DNA from: Trypanosoma brucei | Taxonomy: Eukaryota | Direction: 5' to 3' | Assembly: GCA_000002445.1 (NCBI GenBank) | Contig: CM000207.1 | Coordinates: 1,792,001 to 1,856,000 of the forward strand | DNA length: 64,000 nucleotides | Part shown: in pieces, positions 4,033 to 64,000 of the stretch | Layout: every line of letters starts with the position of its first letter | How positions within the stretch are numbered: the stretch's first letter is position 1 | Translations under genes and position numbers: made by a program | The notes under the pieces: generated by a model | Databases searched by the model: none | Told to the model about the DNA's origin: nothing | Seen by the model: only the letters and a program-made list of their open reading frames with translations

Positions 4033-4740
4033 TGGAGATTGAGGAACATGTGCAGGGGAAAATTACACAACGCGTGAAACCTCACATGATTTTACCATTG
4101 GAGGTAATGTCGGTGTTGCTGATTGTGATGCATTTCTCTGTTTGTTCGTTCGTTTGTCAGTGTTGATTCTCCCGCTCACACTTGAGTTGTGTTTGATTCG
4201 ATGTTTTTTTCTGTTCAGTCGATACGTTCTGTTGTACCTTGTGATGGGACCTTCCAACTCCCAAAAGACGAGGCAAAAGCAACAACAGCAAGGAAGAAAA
4301 AAAAAATGGAATGTAAAGAAGGAAGAAATTAAACTGAATGAATCACATGACGAGGGAATGCATGTGAAGGGGGAGGGAAAGATGAAGCTATACCTTTACA
4401 AAAGGTATCATCTGTAGATTACTGGTCGCACCAGTGATGTAGTGCGTATACGAAGAAAAATGGTGTTATATTATAATCGAATAAACGTAAAATAGTGGGA
4501 GTAGGAGAAGGGGAAGGGGAGTATATGAACCACTCTGCCTTTCTCACCCTCCTTTGAGTTGTTGTTGTTGTCCCCTTGAGTGAAATAATTAAGAAAAAAA
4601 AATATAACCAATTAGTAATTATTTCGAATCCAAGAGAGTTGTGGTATTAAGCAACTCAAGAATGCACCCCACCTTTAATTTTTTAAAATTAAGTTTATCC
4701 CTTTTCAAATGTCACTTTAATGAGTTGTTGCTTTTGGATT

Positions 4741-4782
4741 TCACCTCTTCCGTTTATTCTTTTTTTTCTTTTTCTCATTTGT
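4741..4782 (+). promoter_or_regulatory. polypyrimidine tract upstream of SMC1 (candidate splice-acceptor signal)
   Basis: tcacctcttccgtttattcttttttttctttttctcatttgtc, about 215 nt upstream of ATG 4997. Confidence 0.45.
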
Positions 4783-4996
4783 CAAAAACTTGTTGAATGC
4801 TCTTCATGCTGGTGGTCTCTCCCCTAAAAAAGAGCAATAATACGAATAGGCCAAAGTAAGAAGCAAGCATTCGTCAATAGGCAATTTAAGGCAGGGTTCC
4901 GTGGCCAAATCGAATAAAGTACAAGCGCACATCCATACATATACACGAATATATATATATATATTGTAACAAGTCAAAGATAGCTTCAACTCGGTG

Positions 4997-7900
4997 ATGT
5001 CGTCGCGGATAGAGCGCGTGGAGTTGTTCAACTTCAAAAGTTATTCGGGTCACGTGACAATTGGCCCCTTGAAAGACTTTACATGCATTGTTGGCCCCAA
5101 TGGCTCCGGGAAATCAAACCTTATGGATGCGTTGTGTTTTGTGCTAAGTTCCAACTCCACAGCGACGCTACGTGGCGGAAGCCCAACAGATTTTATTCAC
5201 CGTGGCGCGCAGCAGAGGGAATGTTTCGTTACTGTTGTGCTTCGGCATAGTCGAGCAGATTCGATTGGTTCATCTATTGTTAGTGTTAAAAACGGTGGAA
5301 GTGACAATATGCCCGAAACGTCCTTCACCCGCATTGTGGACAGTGCAGGGCGTATTAAGCACAAAGTTAACGGGAAGCCAGTTGGCGAAGAAGACTTCGT
5401 GTCGGCACTGAGGAAAGTTAACATCGGCCCTCGCGTTAACAACTTTTTGGTGTTTCAAAATGAAGTGCAATCGGTCTCAAAGAAGAAGGCCCAGGAGTTA
5501 ACAGAATTTTTGGAGCGTGTAAGTGGAAGCATTGAATTCAAGGAGGAGTATGACCGTTTGAAGAAAACAGGGGAGCTGGCAAAAATTGAGCTCGCCAAAG
5601 CCGCAGCTGCGAGACGGGAGGCGGGGTCTGCATTAACCGTTGCTCGTGATCAAAAGAAGGAGACGGAAAAGTACAGCGAAACAATGAAGCGTATTTCTGA
5701 AGAGAGGTGCAATGAAGCACTTGTTGAGCTCCTAAGCATTGAGAATCGTATTAGAAAGCAGAAACGGCAGCTCGCACTGCAGAGTGCGGAGCTGGAAAAG
5801 CTTATGAAAACCTTTACATCGGCACAGGATGCGGAGGAGATGAAGCGCACGTACGCTGAAAAGAATAAGTCTTACTTGGAGGAAATAAACCAGAATAGGA
5901 AGGATATCAGTGACCTGCGAAATTTACGAAGTAGCCTTGACAATGCCATGGTCCGTTTGGAGCACTTGAAACGTAGCCATGATGAAAAAAGACGAAAAAT
6001 GGAAAGCGTTTTGGCAAACGAGGAGAATCGGTCGCGGCAGAAAGAGCGAATTGAAGAGGAGATACGCAAACAAAAGGCGCTGCTTGCTGCTTTCGACGGG
6101 CGCTGCAAAGAAGAGGATAAGAATTATACGTCATTGAGTGATGCACTAAATAAGGAGCAACTGAAGGAGTATGGACGGCTCCGGGTTGCATCAAGGTGTC
6201 AAACCAGTACTCTTCGCCAGCAGGTGGATAGGGTGAGAGGTGAGCAGCAATCCATGAGTGAAGGGAAAAAGCAGTGCCTCGTTTCAATAGAGAATATTAC
6301 AATGCAGAGGGACAATCTCTTGGTGGAGGTGCAGAGGAGCGATGCTCTCATAACAGAACTTCAACAGCGTCAGGAGGAACTGCGGGAGCGGGCCAAAGAG
6401 CTTTCCAAGAACTCTGCAATGAAGCAGGCAGAAATTACCCATGCAGAGAGGCGCAACAGGGAAGCCGAAGTGGAGCTTGAAAAGATAAATGCCCAACTTG
6501 GCGAGTTGCACTTCATCGAAGAAAACGACAAACGTGAAGCCAAAGTAACGGAAGCGTTGGAAGAGCTAAAGGTTCTTCACGGCGTCCGCGGCCGACTTGT
6601 CGATCTCTGCACAATTCCCAACAATAAATACAGACACGCCGTAACGGTGGCACTCGGAAAAAACCTTGAAGCCGTCGTTGTCGATACCAGTGAGACTGCA
6701 CATGCATGCGTGCGGTATCTAAAGGAACGGCGTCTGCCGCCGTTGACATTCTTGCCTCTCAACTCCGTTAATGGGAGCGCAGTTGATGACAGGTTACGCA
6801 CGCTTGGTGGTACCTGTAAACCTGTTGTCGACGTCATTTGCTTTGATGCTTCCATAGAGGCTGCCGTGCGCTACGCCCTTGGCCAAACACTCGTCTGTGA
6901 TACCATGGGGGAAGGCCGACGCATCGCGTATGGGCAGAGCAGTGGGGAGCGTTTCAAAGTTGTGACTTGTGACGGTACCGTTCTCAGGCGTAATGGTGTT
7001 GTGCAAGGCGGACTTGCAGCCACACGTTCGCGTGCGCAGAAATGGGACAAAAAGAAGTATGAGGACCTGCGCGCAGCACAAAAACGTTTGATTGAAGGAA
7101 CCAACGGTTGGTTCGAATCTGAGCTTTCCCAGCTTCGCCATGAACTGCAAGGCATGCAGGAGGGTTTGAGATTTACAGAGCAGCGCCAAAAAGCTGTGAA
7201 GGAAGAGATTGAAAGGGCACGAAGTAAGGTCGAGGGCCTGCGTCAGAAGGTGAAGCAGCAAGAGGCCGAACTACACGCAGTAGAAGAGCGTCGCGCTTCA
7301 TACGAGGAGGGTCTTAAGAGGTGTGAGAAGGAATTGGAGGCGGGCCTAGCAGCCATCAAGCGTGCAGAACAAGAGCTGTTTGGTGATTTTCAGAAGCGTG
7401 TGAATATTCCGAACTTGTTGGAATATGAACAGAATGACTTGCGCCGTGCAAATGAGCGTGAGGAGCAACGCCAAACGTTATTGATGCTGATTGGGAAACT
7501 TGAGCTATCACTTAACTCAAATCATGGGCATGTGACCTTTGGTTCTAAGGATCTGCGTGCTGAGTGTGAAGAGATCGAATCACTCATCAAAAAATGTGAG
7601 GCAGAACTAACAGCTACCAAAAAAGTGGTCAAGGAGAAGGAGGTTAAGGTGAATGAGACGGGTGCTCGTGTGGTGCAGCTGAGGGGAGATCTCATGAAGC
7701 TGAAAGAGAGGCGGGATCAACAGGATCGCAGACAGGAGGATGAAAGGCAGAAGTTGAGGCAAGTTCGTCAAGTTGTGAGGATTCTTGAGGCTGGTTGCGA
7801 AACATTTCGCTTACAACGAATGAATGTTGTGCGACGTTGCCAAATGGAAAATGTACCCATCCTCTTAAAACCTGTAGATGCAGTTGGTAAGAAACGGTTG

Positions 7901-8824
7901 CGGCCTTCTGATGCGGATGATCTCAGTTTCAGCGAACCCTTCGCCCTCATTGAGGCCGACACCCCTGATCCTTCACAACAATCCCAACAACAGGACCGAC
8001 GCCCTGCTTTGAAAGCGGCAGCTGAAGACGGACGTGTTATGATTGACTTCTCCGTACTCTCAGAAAATCTTCGGCTTGTTGCCGCTAATGACGCGCAGTT
8101 GTCGCAGTACAAACAGCGCACAGCCTCTTTACTGGAAACTCTTCAACGTACAGTTGAGTCTCTGGGACCCAACCTGAGGGCGGCGACACGCGTAGTTGAC
8201 TGTGAGGCAAAGCTAGCGTTGTGCAATGCTCAATTCGATGCGGTACATAAGAGGGTGAGAGAGATAGATTCGAACCTCATGAAAGTTAAGCACCTCCGCA
8301 CCAAGCGTTTCTTTGAAACGTACAATAAAATAGCTGTGCATGTAGGAAATGTCTACAAGGGTTTGACAAAAAGTGATTCCGATGGGCTTGTGCATGGTAT
8401 CGCGTGTTTGAACCTTGAGAACGAGGATGAACCGTACCTTGGGGGAACCCTTTATAACGCAACACCTCCAATGAAGAGGTGTACAGAAATAGAACGTCTC
8501 TCTGGTGGAGAGCGTACAATGGCTGCTCTCGCACTACTGTTTGCCGTACATGCCACCTCACCAACTCCCTTTTTTGTTTTGGATGAGGTGGATGCCGCAC
8601 TGGACGCTGCAAACGTTCAACGATTGGCGAAATATACTCGAGAGAACTGCAACACAACGCAGTTTATTGTCATTTCCCTCATGGACCAACTGTACCACAT
8701 GGCTGACATGTTGGTCGGTGTACTGAAGGATAAGGAAAGGGGGAGTTCCTCTATTCTTACGATGGATCTCAGTTCTTATCCCCTTGTAGTGGGTGGTGGC
8801 AATAAACACATAAATGGTTATTAG
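4997..8824 (+). CDS. SMC1: structural maintenance of chromosomes protein SMC1 (cohesin ATPase)
   Basis: The track ORF starts at a GTG at 4994; the first ATG is 4997. The N-terminus RIERVELFNFKSY...GPNGSGKSNLMDA carries a Walker A motif. Long coiled-coil arms flank a hinge, LVDLC...LGKNLEAVVVDTSETAHACVRYLKERRLPPLTFLPLNSV. The C-terminus has the ABC signature and Walker B, LSGGERTMAALALLFAVH...PFFVLDEVDAALD. The signature and D-loop region resembles SMC1 more than SMC2, SMC3 or SMC4. Confidence 0.9.
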   Translation: MSSRIERVELFNFKSYSGHVTIGPLKDFTCIVGPNGSGKSNLMDALCFVLSSNSTATLRGGSPTDFIHRGAQQRECFVTVVLRHSRADSIGSSIVSVKNGGSDNMPETSFTRIVDSAGRIKHKVNGKPVGEEDFVSALRKVNIGPRVNNFLVFQNEVQSVSKKKAQELTEFLERVSGSIEFKEEYDRLKKTGELAKIELAKAAAARREAGSALTVARDQKKETEKYSETMKRISEERCNEALVELLSIENRIRKQKRQLALQSAELEKLMKTFTSAQDAEEMKRTYAEKNKSYLEEINQNRKDISDLRNLRSSLDNAMVRLEHLKRSHDEKRRKMESVLANEENRSRQKERIEEEIRKQKALLAAFDGRCKEEDKNYTSLSDALNKEQLKEYGRLRVASRCQTSTLRQQVDRVRGEQQSMSEGKKQCLVSIENITMQRDNLLVEVQRSDALITELQQRQEELRERAKELSKNSAMKQAEITHAERRNREAEVELEKINAQLGELHFIEENDKREAKVTEALEELKVLHGVRGRLVDLCTIPNNKYRHAVTVALGKNLEAVVVDTSETAHACVRYLKERRLPPLTFLPLNSVNGSAVDDRLRTLGGTCKPVVDVICFDASIEAAVRYALGQTLVCDTMGEGRRIAYGQSSGERFKVVTCDGTVLRRNGVVQGGLAATRSRAQKWDKKKYEDLRAAQKRLIEGTNGWFESELSQLRHELQGMQEGLRFTEQRQKAVKEEIERARSKVEGLRQKVKQQEAELHAVEERRASYEEGLKRCEKELEAGLAAIKRAEQELFGDFQKRVNIPNLLEYEQNDLRRANEREEQRQTLLMLIGKLELSLNSNHGHVTFGSKDLRAECEEIESLIKKCEAELTATKKVVKEKEVKVNETGARVVQLRGDLMKLKERRDQQDRRQEDERQKLRQVRQVVRILEAGCETFRLQRMNVVRRCQMENVPILLKPVDAVGKKRLRPSDADDLSFSEPFALIEADTPDPSQQSQQQDRRPALKAAAEDGRVMIDFSVLSENLRLVAANDAQLSQYKQRTASLLETLQRTVESLGPNLRAATRVVDCEAKLALCNAQFDAVHKRVREIDSNLMKVKHLRTKRFFETYNKIAVHVGNVYKGLTKSDSDGLVHGIACLNLENEDEPYLGGTLYNATPPMKRCTEIERLSGGERTMAALALLFAVHATSPTPFFVLDEVDAALDAANVQRLAKYTRENCNTTQFIVISLMDQLYHMADMLVGVLKDKERGSSSILTMDLSSYPLVVGGGNKHINGY

Positions 8825-16546: not shown

Positions 16547-17092
16547 AATTGGGGACATATGCATAGTTGTGCGTACCAGTTTTTGCTGGACACTTCTCCC
16601 CTACTACTTGGTGTTTATTGGGTGATATTATTATGAGGATGTCGCCGTGAGGGTGTCGTTATTGTTAGCTATAGATCGATTGTTACAAAAAAAAACATTT
16701 TCCTTTTTATTCTAATAGCTCTATTTTAGAGCGATAAATGCGTGCGGGCCGAAAGATTCACGTTTTCTTCCATGCAGGGTCTTCTCCGTGGCGCACTTCA
16801 TTTGCAACAATGCTTATTCCCCTTGTCGTATATCTGTCGCCGTACGCGATTGTGTGGGCATGCCGTATATGTACAGATGAGTTTGTGTTCCCTCCTGGTT
16901 GTGGCGATGCTTTATCACCAAAGAAAAAAAAAGAGGGAACGATCAAAGCTAAAATTATTTCTTTTTACTACTTTTAAATAAATCTTTTACCTTTTCTTGC
17001 ATTGTGCCGCAACAATTTTGGTAATACAGACGTTTTTAGGCGTGTGTGTGTCGGTGTGCGTTGGGCGAGGCCTTGAGAGGAGAGGACAGCAC

Positions 17093-18745
17093 ATGTCGAA
17101 ATCGCTGCAGCGCGCTTTGGTATTCTCTGGCCAGGGGGCCCATCGTCGGGGAATGGCGACGGAATATCTACGCATTCCGGCAGTGGCTTGCCTGTGGGAG
17201 CGAATGAAGGGAAGTATGGAACAGAAATATGGCATCTCACTGCAAGACATTATAACGGAAAATCCTACTAGGTTGTACGTTTACAATGATGCATATGATG
17301 TGGCTGCCATATGTGAACGCAGTTGTCAGGATGGCGGAAGTGTGGTAGAATCGACTCCCAGGCAAAAATTGATTTCTCATCCTCAAGGGGTGTTGTCTTT
17401 AACTTCTTTGACGCAGCCGTGTATGCTAGCAGCGCACATGGTGTCACTGGAGTACCTCAAAGAAACCCGAGGTTACTCGGTGGAATCCTCCGAGGTTATA
17501 GCTGGTCACAGTTTAGGCGAGTTCTCCGCTCTTTGCGCCCTTGGATTGCTTTCGCCCGAGGTTGCCGTTGATCTTGTTTATAGACGCGGGGCCCTGATGG
17601 AGGATGCTGTAAAGCACAGTTCCCAAAGTAATGAGGGTCATCTTATGTTTGCCTGTAACCCACAACGGGCAAAACTATGCGTCGAAGATCCCGATCTTGC
17701 AGTCGATCAGCTTCACATATTTGTAGAGTTGATAGCTCGCAATCTCTCTACGACGGCATCGTTTATCGAAGTAGTAAACTATAACATCAGTTACGAGCAG
17801 TACGTTGTTGTCGGTGATCCAATAGCGTTGTCGGCACTTGGCAAATGCCTTGATCCACAATTCCGTGCCACTAGTTGCGGGTCGTCAGCTACCCTCGATA
17901 ATATCGTCCGGACAGCTGTGTCTTCAGTCCTGCAAGACAAGCAAGAGGGGATAACTATGAACCCAAACACTGGTCCGGCACCAGATTTCGTGACTTCCTG
18001 TGCCCGAAAGTACGGTATTAGGTCAACGTTTCGACGCTTTCTGAGGGGTCCGGACGACGGCTATACCCCATCGTTAGAGGAACTTACACACCTAACGCTT
18101 CAGGAGGATGGGAGAAGCGGCCTTAAGAAGAAGTCCTGGTTTATTCCTCTGCCGCTGAGCATTCCTTTTCATAGTAGTCGGCTTCGCAGGGCAATGGATC
18201 TCTTCCTTCCCGTAGTTCGCGATGCATTACCCGACGAAGAGACAATGCGTTCTTTTTTTTGCATCCCACAGTGTGGTGGTAGTGATGAGGGACCGTCTTC
18301 GCGATGTGCCTCAGAGCCGAAGAAACCCGTTTGGCTAACTAACTTAACTGGCACGGCGTTTCGCCCCTTTGATGTCGACTTTCAGCGAGACGCACTGGAC
18401 GCAATGCAGTCGATGAATGTTGGGGAGATCAGGCACAATGGACGGTACCACACTAATTTGGTCGAGTTAGCTTTTAAAAACGGCATGGACACTAGTAGTG
18501 TGCGTGACATGTGTGCGGCCGTGCTAGCAGCGCAGCTAGCCCATCCGGTGCAATGGATTGATGTGATGGATTCTGCTGTTTTTCAGCATGGTGTGCGCGA
18601 GGCCCATGAAATATCACCGGTAAGGACTGTTGCGGATATGTTCAAACGTACGGTTTTTCGAGGGAGGACATCAGACGCCTCGGTCGGAGAGGCGGCGTTG
18701 GATATAGTAACGCGCTGCCTGCCATCCGAGGAACGTTTCTTGTAG
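17093..18745 (+). CDS. malonyl-CoA:ACP transacylase (FabD)-like acyltransferase with a roughly 250-aa C-terminal extension
   Basis: The track ORF starts at a TTG at 16997; the first ATG is 17093 (MSKSLQRALVFSGQGAH...). It has the FabD N-terminal motif in variant form (FSGQGAHRRGM instead of GQGSQ) and the canonical nucleophile elbow IAGHSLGEFSALCALGLLS, followed by VDLVYRRGALMEDAV. About 250 residues beyond a typical about 300-aa FabD have no assignable domain. Confidence 0.8.
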   Translation: MSKSLQRALVFSGQGAHRRGMATEYLRIPAVACLWERMKGSMEQKYGISLQDIITENPTRLYVYNDAYDVAAICERSCQDGGSVVESTPRQKLISHPQGVLSLTSLTQPCMLAAHMVSLEYLKETRGYSVESSEVIAGHSLGEFSALCALGLLSPEVAVDLVYRRGALMEDAVKHSSQSNEGHLMFACNPQRAKLCVEDPDLAVDQLHIFVELIARNLSTTASFIEVVNYNISYEQYVVVGDPIALSALGKCLDPQFRATSCGSSATLDNIVRTAVSSVLQDKQEGITMNPNTGPAPDFVTSCARKYGIRSTFRRFLRGPDDGYTPSLEELTHLTLQEDGRSGLKKKSWFIPLPLSIPFHSSRLRRAMDLFLPVVRDALPDEETMRSFFCIPQCGGSDEGPSSRCASEPKKPVWLTNLTGTAFRPFDVDFQRDALDAMQSMNVGEIRHNGRYHTNLVELAFKNGMDTSSVRDMCAAVLAAQLAHPVQWIDVMDSAVFQHGVREAHEISPVRTVADMFKRTVFRGRTSDASVGEAALDIVTRCLPSEERFL

Positions 18746-19087: not shown

Positions 19088-20449
19088 ATGTTTAGGGTAT
19101 ACACTCGTCGACTGAGTAGCTTGGGGCCGTTCTGTGGGTCGAGGAAATGTCTGCTATGGTGGGGCTATAAAGAAGGAGACCTTCATAGGATTGCGCGTCA
19201 GAGGCCATGGTGGGAAAATGCGGCTATTTTTGCCGGGCTTCTTTGCTTTATTCAGGCATCCAGCATGTGTTATTACTTCGGCAACCGCTGGTATCAGGCG
19301 ATTCGGCCCTCAGGCAACGATTTGTATATTAACAGAGCCATGGATACAAAAGTGTTTTCGAGGCCCGATCTGTCCGTAGCGGCCGTGCGGATGGTAATTC
19401 ATCACGCCCTTTCAGGCGCTCAAACCCCGTTTGGAGTTCCCATGGTATATCCCGAGTATATGAAGCCTGAGGCAGAGGAGTTAATGGAGTTTATACTGCA
19501 GCTAAACCATGAACAGCCAATGTTTTCTATCCCCGATCTTTGGGCGCTGTTTTCGGCAAAAGCACTTGCCCGTTTGGGGGGGCCGAGTATTTCAGTTCAT
19601 CGAGGGAGATCAGACCCACCCAACGATGTACCCGCTGACCAGTTGTTGATTTCCACTCCCTCTCTTGTACCGGAGTCTAAGCGAGACGTGCTTAACATGA
19701 AGCGGCTGCTTTCTCGTCAAGGGTTCGCAGTTGATGAAATTGTCGCCATGTTGGGTGGAATCCGTAATATTGGCTTTCACGAAAGTTCGGGGTTTCATAC
19801 TACTGAGGAGGTGAAGCCCCAGATGCGCCGTCGACCGGGTGTCATGGGGCCAGAGGAAGATGTGTATCACATACCAGATACTCCGCAGAAGTGCACATTA
19901 GATCCATACGTGTTTGGAAGTGAGTATTTTGATCTCCTTCTAGATTACAACTGGAAACAGAATACTTCCCTTTTTCGCCGTAGTGGTCCTTTCCACTGCA
20001 GTGAGAACGATCGCAAGCGTGAAGTCCTGTTGTTGGATCCATTTTCAGAGCAGGCCATGGAACGTGAGCGTAAACGCCTTCAAGCCGAAGAGCGGGCTCG
20101 TGAGTCCGTGGAGCGAGCGGCACTGAAGAGACATCCCAGTTTTGATGAAACGACATCCATCACTGGGGGGCGCGACGGTGAGGCACAGCCCATAAGCGGC
20201 GTGATGAGTGAACTCAATGAAGATGAAGGGATCAACGTCAAGTCACTGGTTGAGGTACCCGAGTTTAAGAGCCCCTGCTCAAGCGTGTCAATGAGGGAGG
20301 TTGATGTACTATTATTGGACGACGCCCTGCTAACGGGTTGGATGCATCGATTCAGCGCTAACGAAATATTATTTTACGATGTATTCGGCACCGTTATGGA
20401 AAAAATTCAATGTCGCGGATACAACCTGAACTCGCTATATCTGCCTTAG
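19088..20449 (+). CDS. class-I heme peroxidase (ascorbate/cytochrome-c peroxidase)-like protein, probably a pseudo-peroxidase with a C-terminal extension
   Basis: 453-aa ORF. [11 protein letters not shown] aligns with the distal-pocket [45 protein letters not shown] aligns strongly with APX [57 protein letters not shown] aligns with the proximal region [22 protein letters not shown], but the proximal His is replaced by Ile/Arg. Confidence 0.7.
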   Translation: [453 protein letters not shown]

Positions 20450-20950: not shown

Positions 20951-23257
20951 ATGGGGCAGCAGAAAAAAGATGCGGCTCAATCTGTAGCTGCCGTTGCTGC
21001 TCAGAATGTTGACAGTTACCTTCGCGGTGTGACGAGTCGAGCCCGAGTTCCTTCGGCAACTGGCGGAAGAGGTACGCGTCGTAGGCTGGCCTCCCAGGCA
21101 GAAGTCGCTGCAGCCAAGATCAAGGAGCAACCTAAGTCTCTTGATGACTTCGCTGACGCTGATAATGGTGATGATGAGTGGGAGGAAGTGATGTTACCCA
21201 CCTCATTTACACCGTCTAGCAGCACAAAACCCGAGGTAAAGGTGAAAGATGAGAAAAATGGCATCGTGGAAACCCCAGAATTTGGTGCAACAGGACCGAA
21301 CCCCGGACAGGGAAGTGTGAAGGCGGAGCTAGTGGATCTCACTGACGAGGAAAACAGACACAATAGGATATTGGCGAGTGTAACGCCAATGGGGGGTCAA
21401 CAATCTTCCTCCCCCTCCTCCGGGCAATGGCGGCAGCGTGATCCCGCCTATGAGCAAATGCTTGAACAGCAACAACTTCTTGCCGCGAAGCGCCGCTCGG
21501 AACGCACAAAACGTGCTGTGGAAGAAATTTCAACCTTGTTATTTGCCTTGTTGCGGGGAAGGAAAATTGTGCAACAGGCGCGCCACCCAAAGTTAGTTCG
21601 TGGTCTTCTGCGCTTACATGTAGTTGAGGATGCGGCATCCAAGACGTACCCGCTTTTACGTGCCGTTCTTCAAGCGAAAGGTTTGTATGCAAAGGCGATG
21701 AATCCTGCTGTGAGTACCCCGTCCCTTGCACCTTGTTGGGTAACCGCTAATAAGGACAGTGTCAACAATTACACTTCTGCTTCTATTTCCGCGTTGCTTC
21801 GTGGTATAGAATGTGTTTTTGTACTGGATGGCGGTATAGAACATGCGGCTCTATCTAACTGGGCTGCTCCCATACAACCTGGGTATCTTTTTGAGCAGCT
21901 GCGTAAGTACCACTACTCCATTGGATCACCTGGGTGTAGAATCGTTCTCCCCCATAGTTTGTATATTTGCGCTGTGTTTCTTTCTCTCGCAGCTGTTTCT
22001 AATGTTTCCTGCCGTCTGGTGGTGGCGGTGGAACGAATGCGGCGGGGAGACATGTCGGAAAAAAGCGGGAGCGACGGAGGATCGCCGCCGAAAGAAGCAA
22101 TGAGTTTGTTTGGTTCTGGAAAGAAGCGCAAACGAGGCGATGATGCTGGTGCGAAGCAAAATACTCCGAAAAGACTGCCATCTTCTTGCTTCTGGTTGGA
22201 AGTTTGGTGCCCGCAGCGGCAGTCGTACATTTCAGTTAATCCATGTGGGGGTTGCGCCACACTCTTTGCCGCTCCATACACCTTTTCTGTGGGCGGAGAT
22301 GCGATTATGGACGTCACCCCCCGTTACTCCATTAAGTACAGCAGTGCTTTCACTCACAGGTTAGGCCGATGTGATAGGTATCGCCACATCTGGAAAGACC
22401 TTCAGTGGAACGATAACAGGGAGGCGTCTGAAGTCATCGTCGACTTGTTTCGCAGGGATGTTGGTAAATATACGGAGGCGCAGATGCAGAGGGAGAAGAA
22501 GCAGCTGCATTCCCTCACGTACGCGGAGGAGGTGCCGAAGACCCTCACGGCACTGCAGAAGCATCCGCTTTTCATTCTCGAAAATGGTCTCAGTCGGTAC
22601 GAGGGCATATACCCCAAAGACAGCACCACCATGGTTGGCAGCGTTAAGGGCCATATTGTGTTCAAGCGCTCTGCAGTTGTGAGCCTTCGCAGTCGCGATG
22701 GTTGGCTGCGGGAGGGTCGCACGGTGTCCGGTGAAGAAGAACCATACAAAGTAATACCACCGCCACCCTCACGTCCCTTCTCGAAGTCGAGTGCTTTATT
22801 TGGTGTTTGGCAAACGAAACCATTCGCTCCGGAGCCGTTAGGTGAGGATGGTAGTATTCCCAAGCACGGCAATACGCAGTGGTATATTCTGTTGGATAAA
22901 CCAGCACCAATCGGATTGGTGCATATGCAGCAACCGAATATTATTCGGGTGGCAAGGCGTATGAACATTGATTTTGGTATCGTTGTTACTGGATATAGGC
23001 GGCGGCGTTTGAATGAAGCGCGTTCCTCAGGATGGGAAGTGGTGACTGACGGTATCATTGTGAAGGAAACTAACACAGGAAGTCTTGTCAAGGCTTATGA
23101 GGAGTGGAAGCAATTAACGGAGGAACAGGAGGCAGCGAAAAGGAAGCAGAGGGCGTACCGGTGGTGGATGCATTTTGTGCAGCATAGACTGGCATACTTG
23201 CGTATTCGTCAGCAGTATTTGGAGGGAGCTACACATGGACATCTTTCCTCTCACTGA
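20951..23257 (+). CDS. XPC: XPC/Rad4-family nucleotide-excision-repair DNA damage recognition protein
   Basis: 768-aa ORF. A BHD1-like segment HPLFILENGLSRYEGIYPKDSTTMVGSVKGHIVFKRSAVVSLRSRDGWLREGRTV matches XPC THPLYALKRHLLKYEAIYP...[23 protein letters not shown]. A BHD3-like segment ALFGVWQTKPFAPEPLGEDGSIPKHGNTQWYILLDKPAPIGLVHMQQPNIIRVARRMNIDFGIVVTGY matches XPC LFGxWQTEPYxPP...GKVPRNEFGNVYLF...[30 protein letters not shown]. Confidence 0.85.
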   Translation: MGQQKKDAAQSVAAVAAQNVDSYLRGVTSRARVPSATGGRGTRRRLASQAEVAAAKIKEQPKSLDDFADADNGDDEWEEVMLPTSFTPSSSTKPEVKVKDEKNGIVETPEFGATGPNPGQGSVKAELVDLTDEENRHNRILASVTPMGGQQSSSPSSGQWRQRDPAYEQMLEQQQLLAAKRRSERTKRAVEEISTLLFALLRGRKIVQQARHPKLVRGLLRLHVVEDAASKTYPLLRAVLQAKGLYAKAMNPAVSTPSLAPCWVTANKDSVNNYTSASISALLRGIECVFVLDGGIEHAALSNWAAPIQPGYLFEQLRKYHYSIGSPGCRIVLPHSLYICAVFLSLAAVSNVSCRLVVAVERMRRGDMSEKSGSDGGSPPKEAMSLFGSGKKRKRGDDAGAKQNTPKRLPSSCFWLEVWCPQRQSYISVNPCGGCATLFAAPYTFSVGGDAIMDVTPRYSIKYSSAFTHRLGRCDRYRHIWKDLQWNDNREASEVIVDLFRRDVGKYTEAQMQREKKQLHSLTYAEEVPKTLTALQKHPLFILENGLSRYEGIYPKDSTTMVGSVKGHIVFKRSAVVSLRSRDGWLREGRTVSGEEEPYKVIPPPPSRPFSKSSALFGVWQTKPFAPEPLGEDGSIPKHGNTQWYILLDKPAPIGLVHMQQPNIIRVARRMNIDFGIVVTGYRRRRLNEARSSGWEVVTDGIIVKETNTGSLVKAYEEWKQLTEEQEAAKRKQRAYRWWMHFVQHRLAYLRIRQQYLEGATHGHLSSH

Positions 23258-49295: not shown

Positions 49296-49730
49296 CATTA
49301 CGATGTGACACGTAGCGTTGTTAATTTAATAAAGAGGTGCAGCGAGCATCTACACATTGTGAGAATCGATTAAGGAAGTGGCTCCTATGAGCCTCTGTAC
49401 GATTTTTTACAAACAACTTTTTAACCGCTGTGGTATGTGGCGTTACGATGGCTCTTGCATTTCCCTGTGCGGGGTGGAAGAATTGCAATGCCAACGCTAT
49501 CCGTGTAGTGTGCGGATACCACAAAGTGGGCCACATTTGAATGTGTTCGGTGGTATTTTTACTAAAAGTTGTACAACGTACTTGATCGTAACTTCACGTA
49601 CGCCCATCATCTGGTCCGTATGATTTTCTCCTATATATTTTTTTTTCGTGGGGTTACATGGGATTTTATTACTAGAAACTGAGGGAAGTAAGTGGGTTTG
49701 GGGGAAGACATATCAAGTCTGAATTGGCAA

Positions 49731-50987
49731 ATGTCTGTTTCTAGTCAAATAGGCATAAGGCGACACGCCTTGTTGCCCTTTATCGGGAGTGTTGCAAGCC
49801 GCCGTAGCTTTCGAGGATGCCAATGGACTCATCACAGTTGCCGCTTCATGTCGTCCTGCAACCCTCTTCGTGGGTCCTTCAAATATCGTCACAACAGAAC
49901 ACTCCCTGAAGATGCAGTTAATCCATTAACGACCCCAACAAACGTCGACGCGGGAGTTCTTCACGTTGTTTCCGTGCCTATTGGTAACTTGAAAGACTTT
50001 TCTATTCGTGCACTTGATGTACTTCGACAAGTGGATTACATTGTAACGACGGACCGCCCTGCAACAAAGACACTCCTTGACCTTGTTCAAATTGAGTCCC
50101 AGGGCCGCTTAATTCATTATTCCCGTAGCAATCGCACGACAACGAAGGAGAAACTAGTTGAGCTCCTGTTGGGGGGCAGGAGAATGGCATTGGTGTGTAC
50201 GAGCGGAACACCATGCGTGGGTGATGTAGGCGGTGAACTGGTGCGGGAGATGCAGGCTGAAGGTGTTCGTGTCGCGGCGGTACCCGGGTCATGCGCTCTG
50301 ACATGTGCATTGGCTGTTGCTGGTGTCACAACTTCCCTTCACGAGGTTAGTGCGACTGCAGACACGAATCGGGCATGTGCTGCCAAGCGGCCGAGGATTG
50401 GCTCTCTCCGTGACGGTTCTTTTTACTTTGGAAATGTGCTTCCGGAATCTCATGGTGAGCGGTTGCGGGTCCTTCGGACGGCTGTAGGAGAGGCAACTCA
50501 CCCATGTGTTTTTTATGAGGTTCCCCGGCGTCTTTTGTCGGTTTTACAGGACATCGCACTCGTCCTTCCCAAACGACGCGTCGTACTAACACATGAACTG
50601 ACAAAGGTAAATGAATCTATACATGCAGATGTTGCAGAAAAGCTACTGTCTTTTTATTCGCGACAGGAGGCGAATATGCTGCTTAAGAAGGGGCAACTTG
50701 TCCTGATCATCGATGGGCCGGATGAAAACGAAATGCGGGAACGCTTAGAATGCGAAGCCCTAAAACGACAGCGACTGCGGAGGAGTTTTGCGTCGTTAAC
50801 CGGACGCTGTGGTAACATGGAGGAGAAAAATACTCACGATGTGGGGAAGACTAAAAGAATGAGGTTGTGCCGTCGGTCCTTATTGCGCAAGAAGCGGCGT
50901 GAGGCGCTTATTTCAAGAATAGAAAAAGAACAAGAGAGAATACGAATGACAATGTTGATTAACCGTACGGACGCAACAAGAGATTAA
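49731..50987 (+). CDS. RsmI-like tetrapyrrole-methylase-superfamily rRNA 2'-O-methyltransferase, probably mitochondrial
   Basis: The track ORF starts at a GTG at 49692; the first ATG is 49731. The N-terminal about 60 aa (MSVSSQIGIRRHALLPFIGSVASRRSFRGCQW...) is R/S-rich and lacks acidic residues, like a mitochondrial presequence. The core LHVVSVPIGNLKDFSIRALDVLRQVDYIVTTD matches RsmI [32 protein letters not shown]. The C-terminus is basic and Arg-rich. Confidence 0.8.
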   Translation: MSVSSQIGIRRHALLPFIGSVASRRSFRGCQWTHHSCRFMSSCNPLRGSFKYRHNRTLPEDAVNPLTTPTNVDAGVLHVVSVPIGNLKDFSIRALDVLRQVDYIVTTDRPATKTLLDLVQIESQGRLIHYSRSNRTTTKEKLVELLLGGRRMALVCTSGTPCVGDVGGELVREMQAEGVRVAAVPGSCALTCALAVAGVTTSLHEVSATADTNRACAAKRPRIGSLRDGSFYFGNVLPESHGERLRVLRTAVGEATHPCVFYEVPRRLLSVLQDIALVLPKRRVVLTHELTKVNESIHADVAEKLLSFYSRQEANMLLKKGQLVLIIDGPDENEMRERLECEALKRQRLRRSFASLTGRCGNMEEKNTHDVGKTKRMRLCRRSLLRKKRREALISRIEKEQERIRMTMLINRTDATRD

Positions 50988-59279: not shown

Positions 59280-60221
<942 letters not shown>

Positions 60222-60606
60222 CACGGAGATCAACCGGCATTCGTAGACAAGAAAAATGTGGTAAGTTTCATTTTTTTTTTGTTTTGTTTTGCCAGATGGT
60301 GAACTGATGGGTCTGCCTAATCCGAATAAAAAAAAGGGGAAATATTACCACAGATAAAATATGTAAAACTGAAAGGCGCAACTCCTCACTTCCTTATGGA
60401 TGGTAGAGAGAAACTCCCTCAATGGTGCAACCAGAGGAGGAGGGAAACCACGGAGGAATGCGGGAGACAAATGGTTTAGAGTACGTGGTGTCAATAACCA
60501 TGCAGTGAAAAGTAGTAATACTGTGGTCCTTGTGCTGTTTAATTTCTACATATATTTATACTCATTTATATGCTGATACACATATATTTGTATTTATACA
60601 TCTGTA

Positions 60607-60703
60607 CATATATATATATATATATCTATCTGTGTATCTTCGCCACTCTTTCCTCCGTTAGTGTTTGCGTATGATTGAGTGAATATATATATATATATAT
60701 ATT
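60607..60703. repeat. two (TA)n microsatellites (about 60607-60626 and about 60683-60703) in the AT-rich 3' flank of the LRR gene
   Basis: The sequence shows tacatatatatatatatatatatc and gaatatatatatatatatatatatttg. Confidence 0.8.
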
Positions 60704-61570
60704 TGTAAAGAAAGATTATCAGATTTGGCGTGTAAAGGCAAATTTCAGTGGTGAGGTGACGGCACACACGATTTCCATACCATCTGCGGGATATTTCTAC
60801 AGCTGTTTAGGCAGGCACACATATAAACCTGCTTAAATGTGTGAAGTGTATTCAGTGATGGGCTAACAATTCTTTCCTTTTTTTATTCTTTTTTTTTGTT
60901 TTTGAAGTAAAAAAAGTTTCCCCCTCCCTTCGATGTCCCCCCTTCCTTTTCTGGCTTTTTTTTCTTCTTTTCTTTTCTTTCCTTCCTTCCATTGTTTAGT
61001 AAACTGAGGTGGTTATTTAATTGATATGAAGAGAAAAAACAAAACAAACAAACAAAATCCGGAGGAGGGAAAGGGATGGAGGGGGAAAATAAAAAGAAAA
61101 AAAAGACGGAGTGAAGGAAAGTCCCACACGCTCACGCCTGAGAACCTGCACAGGTTTATCTGTATTCAATGCTTTTTTATCTTTATCTTTATCTTTATCT
61201 TTTATCTTTTTTTTTTTTGAGGATGAAGGGCTTTTTTTTTCAGTTGTTTTCTTTTTTCCTGTTGGGCGTATATTTGTGTTCGACTCATTTTCTCCCTTTT
61301 TGTTTTTTTTCTTTCTTTCTTTAGAAGCAGAGCGTAAGAGAGATGATTTTTCTTTTTGTTGTTCACAGTGTATGCATGTGTGTTTGTGTTGTTTTTTTTT
61401 TTTTTTGTAGGAACGAAACAACTGGTAAATTATCCAGCAATCTAAACAAAAAGCACAAAAAGTATATGAAATAAACGTCTATATCAATAGAAACGGAGGG
61501 GATATATTTCAAAATAAAAAGAAAAAAAGAAATTGAGGAAAGTTTCGAGAGAGTATGGAGACAAATATTG

Positions 61571-61592
61571 GAAGGAAGGAAGGAAGGAAGGA
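61571..61592. repeat. (GGAA)n tetranucleotide repeat
   Basis: gaaggaaggaaggaaggaagga within the ORF-free tail. Confidence 0.85.
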
Positions 61593-62710
61593 GCACACAC
61601 ACACAAAAAAAAAAATACCATCAAAAAAACAACAAAGAGGTATTCGGAAAAATTAAGAAAAGGAAAAGAAAAAGGAACATGTTTGATTCGTGTCTTATCT
61701 AAAGGGTTTAAGGGGGGGGAAGTAACATGAGGCAAACACAAGAAATTTAATATAATAACATGTAATGACACCATATGAAAAGGACATTTCACAAAAGCAA
61801 CTGCGAGTTGTGGTGTACGGGTGGTAATGACACAAGAGAGAAGTTATGGTGAAAACATATGAGAGAATAATCATATATATATATATATATGTATTCGTGA
61901 AAATATCTCCGATGATGTCTTGCTTTATTCCTCTCACTTACACGCTTACTCATTTCTTCTGCGTATTTCCTTCAGCGTTATTATATCTGTTTTATATTTG
62001 TTCCTTCTGAATTGATAAATGAATCAATGAGTGCTATGGCGCTGTGACACAAAGGAAATTATGGAATAAACCTGACGGAAAGGAAAGGAGGATGGGGGAA
62101 CAAATTGATGGAATTGCGTAACTTACGCAGTGGCGTTGCTGTACGCTTTTTTTTTGAAATTATGTTCGTTATATATATATATATATGTTTTTCCGTTTCT
62201 GCAGCTATGCTAAAAGTTTTTATTATTGTTTTTGTTCTTTACTGTGACGTTCGTTACTATTTTATTCTTCTCTCCTATTCTCACAACTACATGTTCGGTT
62301 TGTTGGTATCATTGTGCGGAAGTTTCTTCTTTTTTTTTTATTTGATGTGTCATCTTCCTTTTTCTGTTTTTTTCTTCGGTCCAATAATTTAGAACTACGG
62401 AGGCGTTTGTTGTAATGCAACGAAATAAAATGAGAAAATAACCGAAGAAAAGAGAGAAAAAAAATGATATATATGTATACACTGGGTGCAAAAGGTTGTA
62501 AATTAGAGTGCTTGCCGCATGAAAGTGTTTGTTTGTTTATATATATTTATTTATATATATACTTTCAAAAAAAAAAAACAATGGATGAGTTTTTATATTC
62601 CAGCCCATGTTTACACACGGGTTTGGGGTGGATGGTGGTATACTTAAGGGAGTTTGATATGCGAGGAATATTCCTGTCGCTAGTTATGAGGACATGTGCG
62701 ATATTTTTCC

Positions 62711-62732
62711 TGTTGTTGTTGTTGTTGTTGTT
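62711..62732. repeat. (TTG)n trinucleotide repeat
   Basis: tgttgttgttgttgttgttgtt. A second (ATT)n/(GTT)n block lies at about 62975-63000. Confidence 0.85.
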
Positions 62733-63755
62733 TTCCCTTCTTTTTTTTTTCATTTGTTCCCTCCATCTCTTCTTCATCTTTTCTTTTCTTTTCTCATTTC
62801 TTTCCTTCTTCTACTTCTTCAACTCTTTCATAATTCTGCTTTTTGATCTGTTTTTCTTTTTTTTTTTGTTTTGGAAAGAGTCCACTGTGCGTGAAGAAAA
62901 AAAAATTCTCCTTTTTGTCGAAATTGCTTCTCTTTTTTCTTTTTCTTTTTTCTTTTTTCATATTTTATTGTTATCATTATTATTATTGTTGTTGTTGTTT
63001 TCATTAATTTACCGTAGTTTCTTTCTATTATTCCTTCCCTCTTGTAGGGTTGGCTGCTTGGTTTGTGTTTTCTTTTATCTTATTTTATTTTTACTTTAAT
63101 TTTCACAAAATAAAACAAAAAGTGAAAAAAGAGGAAAAAAAAAAGAACAGAAAAAAAAACAAAGATAATAGAATCGAGTGCGAGTCAGGGAACACATACA
63201 AAAAAAAATCATGTAGAATGAACAACACGGAGGTTAATTGAAAAAGAAAAATAAATGGAAACGGAAAAAGAAAGAAAACGAATGTTAATGATTGTAAATA
63301 TGATTAAAGGCAGAAACAGATGGAGAAGAGAGGAAAGAAAAGAAATGAGAAAAGAAAAGAAGAAAGAAATGAAGGAAAGAATAGAAGGAAAGAATAAGTG
63401 TATTATGTGTTGGATAAGAGGATTTTTAGAGAAGGAAGATGAAAGGATTAAGTTTTTGTTTTGGTTTGTTTTGTTTTGTATATGTGTGTTAAACAATTGA
63501 ACGGGGAAAGCGAGGGATGTGAGTACGCTGACAAATTGACGAAATTGTTTCTTTTTCTTTTTCTTTTTTTGTTTACCTTTTTTTTTTTGCAGTTTCCTCT
63601 TTGTTGCAACAGTACCCCATCTCCCCAATACATTAGCGTACACAATCTGTCACCCCACAAATGAGGAGATTTGCATTATTTGAAGGGGTTTGCCTTCTCA
63701 TGCTCTTCCCTTTCATTTTGTTTGTTCCTTTCTTTTGCTTGTCTTTTCTTATTAT

Positions 63756-63791
63756 TGTGTGTATGTGTGTATGTGTGTGTGTGTGTGTGTT
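63756..63791. repeat. (GT)n / (GTGTAT)n microsatellite
   Basis: gtgtgtatgtgtgtatgtgtgtgtgtgtgtgtgt near the end of the window. Confidence 0.85.
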
Positions 63792-64000
63792 TTGTTTGCT
63801 TCCGTCCCGTCTGTTGGTTTCTGCATTTTTGCGGTATATAAATATATAAGTAAATATATCTAAAAATATACGTGATGTTGGTGATGGTGATGGTAGTGAT
63901 AATGACTCTTGTTTTCATGCACGTGCGCATGCCTGTGTATATGTTTGCCTGAGCGCACTGAAGAAAAAAATAAGGAAGGGTGAAACTACAAGAAAAAAAA

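Follow-up and report, generated by a model that had tools for sequence, protein, structure and literature searches.

The closest described relatives of the protein reported here are the trypanosomatid hybrid type-A class-I peroxidases, LmP/APX of Leishmania major (3RIV) and APx-CcP of Trypanosoma cruzi (7OPT), which share their fold with ascorbate peroxidase (APX) and cytochrome c peroxidase (CcP). Three trypanosomatid heme peroxidases have been listed, namely CcP/APX, the pseudoperoxidase and 'a third uncharacterized enzyme' (PMC10955670). Neither APX activity in lysates nor an APX gene was found in Trypanosoma brucei (PMC7237987), in agreement with what a preliminary description of the present DNA had said of African trypanosomes, and a sentence in one review may be taken to mean that T. 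brucei has no heme peroxidases whatever. In this study, we analysed a stretch of 64,000 nucleotides from T. brucei (contig CM000207.1, positions 1,792,001 to 1,856,000; hereafter the window) and in it the peroxidase-like gene at 19088-20449 on the + strand. From sequence comparison, its product is predicted to be a protein of the class-I peroxidase fold whose heme ligation is non-canonical or lost, and which is distinct from TL29/APX-L, the KatG C-terminal domain and the Leishmania pseudoperoxidase LmPP.

The gene is probably Tb927.9.11920, as judged solely by its position beside TbXPC, which is Tb927.9.11930 (PMC4138998). A literature search found no paper that mentions Tb927.9.11920 or describes the peroxidase-like family. 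What was already known is the database label 'peroxidase, putative' and a single literature allusion, the 'third uncharacterized enzyme' of PMC10955670, which we infer to be this family. The active-site state, the insertion architecture, the evolutionary series and the phyletic pattern given below appear to be new, as no description of them was found in the literature.

A class-I peroxidase fold with an altered heme pocket

The open reading frame (ORF) is complete, encoding 453 amino acids (aa) plus a stop, with in-frame stops immediately 5′ of the ATG, and a database sequence search showed its product to match a 'peroxidase, putative' of Trypanosoma equiperdum at 100% identity. The product matched the family model PF00141 with E=2.8e-10 and 40.8 bits, against a curated cut-off of 27. 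Comparison by hhalign with a profile of 20 canonical class-I enzymes gave a probability of 99.7% and E=2.7e-25 over 240 aligned columns, spanning the distal helix through the last helix of the class-I fold. A profile of 20 orthologues retrieved the L. major and T. cruzi APx-CcP (3RIV, 7OPT) as the best solved relatives, and these two were also the best structure matches. Two marks of class I of the peroxidase-catalase superfamily, the match to the family model and an all-helical fold that includes the C-terminal helices, were found, and the fold assignment made in the preliminary description was borne out by the PF00141 match, the orthologue profile search and hhalign alike. The product was the sole member of this superfamily seen within the window.

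The heme pocket was examined in a MAFFT alignment in which pea APX, with its numbering confirmed (R38, H163, W179, D208), was added to 32 members and relatives of the family; statements of invariance rest on an alignment of 20 trypanosomatid and bodonid-like sequences. The gene and the two segments that carry the pocket are as follows.

19088-20449, + strand: peroxidase-like gene, T. brucei-group member of a kinetoplastid family (ORF, sequence search, synteny)
19385-19411, + strand: distal helix VRMVIHHAL (aa 100-108), with invariant Arg101 and His105, and Ile104 for Trp
19745-19780, + strand: proximal-helix segment, with Ile225 (19760-19762) at the proximal-His position, Arg226 and His231

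On the distal side, Arg101 and His105 correspond to APX R38 and H42 and are invariant in all 20 sequences; Ile104 takes the place of W41, so that the distal triad has Ile in place of the aromatic residue. On the proximal side, Ile225 stands at the position of the ligand H163 and Cys269 at that of W179, leaving Asp406 (APX D208) as the only member of the proximal His/Asp/Trp triad. In APX and CcP, both pocket tryptophans tune or carry the radical. His231 corresponds to APX H169, which we take to be a heme-propionate contact. Besides Arg101 and His105, the residues invariant in 20/20 sequences are Arg226, His231, Asp406, Cys304 and Cys397, and Arg226 is nearly invariant over the whole family. 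In APX, Arg172 binds ascorbate and lies beside the heme propionate. The ascorbate-site arginine expected of an APX was not found in the window protein: APX residues 170-172 (K-E-R) have no aligned counterpart, and the sequence there reads H231-E-S-S-G.

The register of the proximal stretch needs a comment. In hhalign it is shifted by one residue, so that Arg226 pairs with the canonical His. We take Ile225, not Arg226, as the equivalent because neobodonid orthologues read G-H-R-T-L-G, with the His just before the conserved Arg. The span from VA(L/M) to His231 is equal in length in the window protein and APX, and one residue shorter in the neobodonid forms. The preliminary description had given the distal Arg/His as present, the distal Trp as changed to Ile and the axial His as replaced by Ile/Arg, and all three statements agree with these alignments, the last with Ile225 in MAFFT and from the neobodonid orthologues or with Arg226 in hhalign. 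Its further claim that canonical heme ligation is lost also stands, since re-alignment by MAFFT or hhalign brought no His to the proximal position in either register. With the proximal His lost, canonical heme ligation is impossible in the window protein.

The remainder of the fold is laid out as follows.

19325-19780, + strand: N-terminal two thirds of the fold, distal to proximal helix, aa 80-231 (hidden Markov model [HMM], MAFFT, hhalign)
19781-19888, + strand: insertion 1 relative to APX/CcP, aa 232-267, of low model confidence, with His237 and His261 conserved mainly in trypanosomatids
19889-19954, + strand: core segment, aa 268-289, homologous to APX PWTSNPLIFDNSYF, with Cys269 at the Trp179 position (alignments)
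19955-20275, + strand: insertion 2, aa 290-396 (alignments, AlphaFold2 [AF2] model)
20276-20422, + strand: C-terminal helices of the peroxidase fold, aa 397-445, including Asp406; no separate domain (alignments)

The additional length over APX/CcP consists of two insertions inside the fold, of about 36 and about 107 aa, and compact relatives of 310-335 aa are mostly without both. In insertion 2, beta strands are predicted and the motif RxR...LLDPFSE is conserved; it also has a long E/R-rich helix (aa 321-348) and, within an acidic stretch of low confidence, a conserved GEAQ-I-G. Of the invariant cysteines, Cys304 is found close to the start of this insertion, and Cys397 is the first residue past its end. 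The motifs quoted in the preliminary description were all recovered where it had placed them (aa 100-108, 164-179, 220-229 and 326-348). The novel C-terminal domain of about 200 residues that it had proposed has to be given up: aa 397-445 align to the C-terminal helices of APX/CcP by HMMER, MAFFT and hhalign, the segment in question (20000-20449) covers only 150 aa, and the E/R-rich helix (quoted motif aa 326-348), which had been read as following the fold, sits by MAFFT and hhalign in an insertion within it.

Comparison with described peroxidases and peroxidase-like proteins

The window protein has the fold of the 3RIV/7OPT enzymes and shares with them the distal Arg/His, the proximal Asp and an N-terminal anchor architecture, the latter also seen in three canonical proteins (P0054, P0056, P0057). 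Unlike those enzymes, it has no proximal His, neither pocket Trp and no Arg172 equivalent, and it carries the two insertions. Conversely, Arg226, the Cys304/Cys397 pair and an N-terminal RPWW motif occur only in the window family, an orthologous group apart from those enzymes and at a conserved locus of its own. Among canonical class-I relatives from outside the family, the three just named are the closest; they have a hydrophobic N-terminal anchor and a proximal His, and their distal helix reads R-L-A-W-Q, with Gln for the distal His, which makes them another non-canonical group.

LmPP (5VIA) resembles the window protein in being a trypanosomatid protein of the peroxidase fold with a non-canonical active site. 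It reportedly has a Cys/His-ligated heme, with the proximal His kept and a distal Cys ligand added. The window protein keeps the distal His and loses the proximal one. Structural identity between the two is only 12-16% with no orthology, and neither close sequence similarity to LmPP nor the Cys/His coordination with a proximal His reported for it was found in the window protein; in the T. brucei sequence there is no Cys in the distal helix VRMVIHHAL nor beside position 225.

Arabidopsis TL29 (APX-like, 3RRW) and the KatG C-terminal domain (1U2J) have the class-I fold without a proximal ligand and offer a precedent for its non-catalytic use; unlike them, the window protein has invariant Arg101, His105, His231 and Asp406, a membrane anchor and large insertions. 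Peroxidase-like domains thought to be heme-free have been described as lacking both histidines (PMC4232752), whereas the window protein has lost only the proximal one and has an invariant distal His105. In the state of its pocket, the window protein also resembles the cavity mutants of horseradish peroxidase (HRP His170Ala) and CcP (His175Gly), which combine an intact distal side with the absence of the proximal His. The HRP His170Ala mutant is said still to bind heme, with the distal His coordinating the iron. Those mutants are engineered single changes in active enzymes; the window protein is natural, ancient and constrained, and has many more pocket changes.

A bounded kinetoplastid family under strong constraint

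An exhaustive profile search over 1.84 billion representatives revealed that the family is sharply bounded, with 26 clusters at E<1e-30 and then a gap to 6e-14, where canonical peroxidases start. A profile of distant members (A2) returned five proteins only and no further named taxa from a word-indexed database. The gene order MCAT, peroxidase-like and, where the contig extends so far, Rad4/XPC and RPA3 was found in T. cruzi, L. tarentolae, the kinetoplastid contigs L001 and L005, contig L010, and the contig of P0031. We define the MCAT-adjacent family by a position directly 3′ of MCAT and a high profile score, and the window gene has both. The neighbours that define the locus in the window are the following.

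17090-18745, + strand: upstream neighbour, acyl-transferase (MCAT-like) gene, a positional orthology marker and no functional partner
20951-23257, + strand: downstream neighbour, Rad4/XPC (TbXPC, Tb927.9.11930), a positional marker only

The identity of the T. brucei peroxidase-like protein to its counterparts was 72% in T. cruzi and 54.5% in L. tarentolae; the corresponding values were 68% and 51% for MCAT, 55% and 48% for XPC, and 73% and 44% for RPA3. Among six Trypanosoma species, the window protein is 67-74% identical, and it is about 52% identical to Leishmaniinae. Since these identities match or exceed those of most neighbours, the window protein is constrained like genuine enzymes. The view of a retained paralog is upheld both by this constraint and by the intact ORF. 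A decaying relic of APx-CcP in African trypanosomes, which would agree with the lack of APX activity in T. brucei and the loss of the key catalytic ligand, is refuted by the same conservation data and by the fact that the loss of the His is common to all sampled trypanosomatids, including species with a separate APx-CcP (T. cruzi 7OPT, L. major 3RIV).

The proximal His is kept in P0051 from the free-living bodonid Neobodo designis and in P0032, P0038, P0043, P0045 and P0050. One of these, P0045, is a compact form carried by the metagenomic contig L010 in the same syntenic position. In a rough neighbour-joining tree the His-retaining forms were basal. The simplest history would start from an ancestral kinetoplastid APx-CcP paralogue with a normal proximal His; on the lineage to trypanosomatids and some bodonid-like taxa, the proximal His would then have been lost, and the insertions and the Cys pair gained.

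Several members of the family depart from the T. brucei form. All Leishmaniinae-type orthologues (P0007-P0017) have two Cys, at 224 and 227, flanking the lost His position in a CxxC-like G-C-x-R-C-I-G, the Trypanosoma counterpart of which (19757-19768) reads G-G-I-R-N-I-G; in Leptomonas seymouri (P0009), residue 225 is Tyr. Unlike the T. brucei protein, the Leishmania protein may, to judge from these residues, use thiolate ligation of heme or a metal, or have redox activity. The gene at L001:6001-7314 (P0042; related clusters P0041, P0039 and P0033) is 30% identical to the T. brucei protein, and the adjacent MCAT is 51% identical; in this lineage (Logan runs SRR22803237, SRR22803246 and SRR22803255) the distal Arg is changed to Gln and Cys397 to Ser. 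Such divergence indicates, as far as sequence can, lineage-specific accelerated or relaxed evolution or a change of function. We considered Phytomonas as the source of L001 and rejected it, since its MCAT is 45-48% identical to that of Phytomonas EM1/Hart1 and about equally far from all named trypanosomatids; by its sequence, L001 appears to be a deep kinetoplastid lineage. On L005 an extra gene of 1119 aa without a Pfam match (4694-8053) lies between the peroxidase-like gene and Rad4; the window, T. cruzi, L. tarentolae and L001 lack it there. Three Leishmania models of 369 aa (P0023, P0026 and P0027, from L. donovani, L. infantum and L. guyanensis) begin with the Met right after the distal Arg and thus come without the membrane anchor and Arg101, so that they look mis-annotated. 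P0147 of L. donovani (834 aa) is an apparent fusion of MCAT and the peroxidase-like gene, as suggested by its MCAT match, its PF00141 match and its length.

Absence of the gene from the Phytomonas locus

In Phytomonas EM1 and Hart1, a stretch of 4.2-4.4 kb without a called gene separates MCAT from Rad4 and RPA3. In all the other kinetoplastids examined, the peroxidase-like gene lies between MCAT and Rad4. The gene-free stretches are L008:10585-14777 in EM1 (GC 0.43) and L009:10585-14943 in Hart1 (GC 0.34). Searching these syntenic loci with 12 family members by tblastn, or their six-frame translations with the family HMM, revealed no remnant (E>1), while the positive controls gave 4e-241 and 4e-49. 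The same database that returned the Phytomonas MCAT gave no Phytomonas member of the peroxidase-like family. Phytomonas has secondarily lost mitochondrial cytochromes and other hemoproteins, and exactly such a phyletic pattern led to the discovery of the cytochrome c synthetase KCCS (PMC8262978). The syntenic absence in this hemoprotein-poor genus gives indirect support for a heme-linked role, and the suggestion of the preliminary description that the protein is a heme sensor or binder stays plausible.

Predicted membrane anchor

Ahead of the peroxidase fold, the protein has three N-terminal segments.

19088-19153, + strand: basic N-terminus, aa 1-22, starting M-F-R and without acidic residues, putatively like a mitochondrial presequence
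19154-19216, + strand: highly conserved juxtamembrane motif, aa 23-43 (alignment of 20 sequences)
19217-19285, + strand: single predicted transmembrane helix (membrane anchor), aa 44-66 (hydropathy, AF2)

The first 42 residues contain nine K/R against two D/E, both acidic residues being past aa 22, and R3 is invariant. Short presequences do occur in trypanosomatids. In the juxtamembrane motif, W25, K28, H33, R34, R37, R39, P40, W41, W42 and E43 are invariant in the 20 sequences. The top Kyte-Doolittle window covers aa 46-64, and AF2 gave a helix at aa 41-72 with a predicted local distance difference test score (pLDDT) of 81-87. The window protein is therefore a predicted single-pass membrane protein with a large class-I (APx-CcP-type) peroxidase-fold domain. 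The conserved Cys304/Cys397 pair would fit an oxidising compartment such as the intermembrane space.

Possible functions of the window protein

Given the state of the pocket, we propose, with a probability of about 0.5, that the window protein binds heme loosely and non-canonically through the distal His and serves in heme handling or sensing or in a cytochrome c-linked role, rather than in the turnover of H2O2. After import into the mitochondrion, the protein would be fixed by its anchor to the inner membrane and its peroxidase-like domain would face the intermembrane space, the arrangement reported for the related Leishmania peroxidase. The distal side of the former heme pocket would still be in use: heme would most likely be bound loosely by His105 with no proximal tether, after the example of HRP His170Ala. 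The preserved distal half-pocket, together with the absence from Phytomonas, argues that the function still involves heme or heme proteins.

A narrower version of this proposal, speculative and rather unlikely, would make the protein a carrier or sensor of labile heme, anchored in the inner mitochondrial membrane of these heme-auxotrophic parasites and passing on or reporting heme for cytochrome maturation (e.g., by KCCS) or for heme a synthesis. It would explain why the gene survived the loss of the proximal ligand, why it is retained in T. brucei, which is reportedly without APX, and why it is missing at the syntenic site in Phytomonas.

Several observations weigh against loose heme binding at the mitochondrial inner membrane. 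Residue 225 is highly variable (I/L/A/M/V/D/N/Y/S/T/K over the 20-sequence and 32-member alignments), and such free variation suggests that there is no proximal-side contact with the iron. Of the canonical propionate contacts, His231 alone remains. The mitochondrial location and the topology are predicted from the sequence, and the N-terminus could instead direct the protein to the secretory pathway as a type-II signal anchor. With a mean pLDDT of 61, the AF2 model is mediocre. The Phytomonas searches covered the syntenic loci of two assemblies rather than whole genomes, and each gene-free stretch has one run of N, of 20 nt at L008:11519-11538 and of 191 nt at L009:12549-12739.

Some of these observations would be expected if the protein were a heme-free pseudo-enzyme whose fold has become a scaffold or docking module, e.g., for cytochrome c or for a respiratory or assembly factor, in the way that CcP docks cytochrome c, and which was lost in Phytomonas along with its partner. 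We doubt this explanation, the main rival, while regarding it as a real possibility. In its favour, the pocket has lost the proximal His, both Trp, the Arg172 equivalent and most propionate contacts, and residue 225 is variable; conserved linear motifs, in the insertions and next to the membrane helix, point to protein-protein contacts; there are precedents in TL29 and the KatG C-terminal domain; and the absence from Phytomonas fits equally well. However, Arg101, His105, His231 and Asp406 have stayed invariant long after the loss of the His, which is unexpected for an empty pocket, and the domains presumed to be heme-free are those that lack both histidines (PMC4232752). The window protein is also not a chain in any solved structure, as sequence searches of the PDB gave ordinary peroxidases only.

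That the window protein works as a heme peroxidase with another axial ligand, such as His231, His237, His261, Cys269 or a Cys of the Leishmaniinae CxRC, is distinctly improbable, even though the distal Arg/His catalytic pair is intact, conserved His and Cys lie near the proximal helix, the Leishmaniinae have Cys at 224 and 227, and the database label is 'peroxidase, putative'. The sole candidate conserved over the His-less clade is His231, and it is no replacement ligand because it is also present in orthologues and canonical enzymes with a true proximal His. Loss of both Trp and absence of an Arg172 equivalent likewise speak against a working peroxidase, as does the lack of APX activity in T. 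brucei lysates (PMC7237987).

We also considered the window protein as the T. brucei orthologue of LmPP and rejected this as very improbable: the L. tarentolae orthologue P0014, about 53% identical to the window protein, had no match to 5VIA at E<=10, the structure-based identity to 5VIA is as low as given above, Leishmania has its own syntenic orthologues of the window protein, and the closest solved relatives by profile are the APx-CcP of L. major and T. cruzi. Least credible of all is the decaying relic dealt with above, in view of an intact ORF and a conservation equal to or above that of the neighbours.

Other features of the window

Of the 24 ORFs of at least 200 aa in the window, all are on the + strand bar one that overlaps another ORF, a bias that fits a trypanosomatid polycistronic unit, as expected. 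The genes adjoining the peroxidase-like gene are unrelated housekeeping genes, so that gene order offers no operon-type clue to its function. As context only, the protein of 34667-36208 matches PF01358 (E=7.6e-14), a 'Poly A polymerase regulatory subunit' of the poxvirus type, and that of 49692-50987 (431 aa) has a tetrapyrrole-methylase domain (PF00590, E=8e-22). The GC content is 0.32-0.36 at 60001-64000 against 0.42-0.53 in the rest of the window, and the transcription unit may end in this low-GC right part, or the part may be a long intergenic region. A tandem-repeat scan of the window gave a single short array, at 62737-62828, an imperfect and pyrimidine-rich repeat of 44 bp. Scans of the window for tRNAs and against Rfam gave no matches.

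Implications for kinetoplastid biology

Kinetoplastid parasites are reportedly unable to make heme, a statement made for Leishmania and T. cruzi. Were the window protein a heme-free scaffold, the interest of the family would be more modest, that of one further pseudo-enzyme. As it stands, T. brucei, an organism reported to be without APX, has in this protein a natural 'cavity-mutant' active site, and the protein is conserved like real enzymes. The His-containing neobodonid, the His-less Trypanosoma and the CxRC-bearing Leishmaniinae forms make up a natural series for the repurposing of a peroxidase. The phyletic pattern of the family is the same as the one that revealed the kinetoplastid cytochrome c synthetase, which makes the gene a testable candidate for a heme-linked mitochondrial function.

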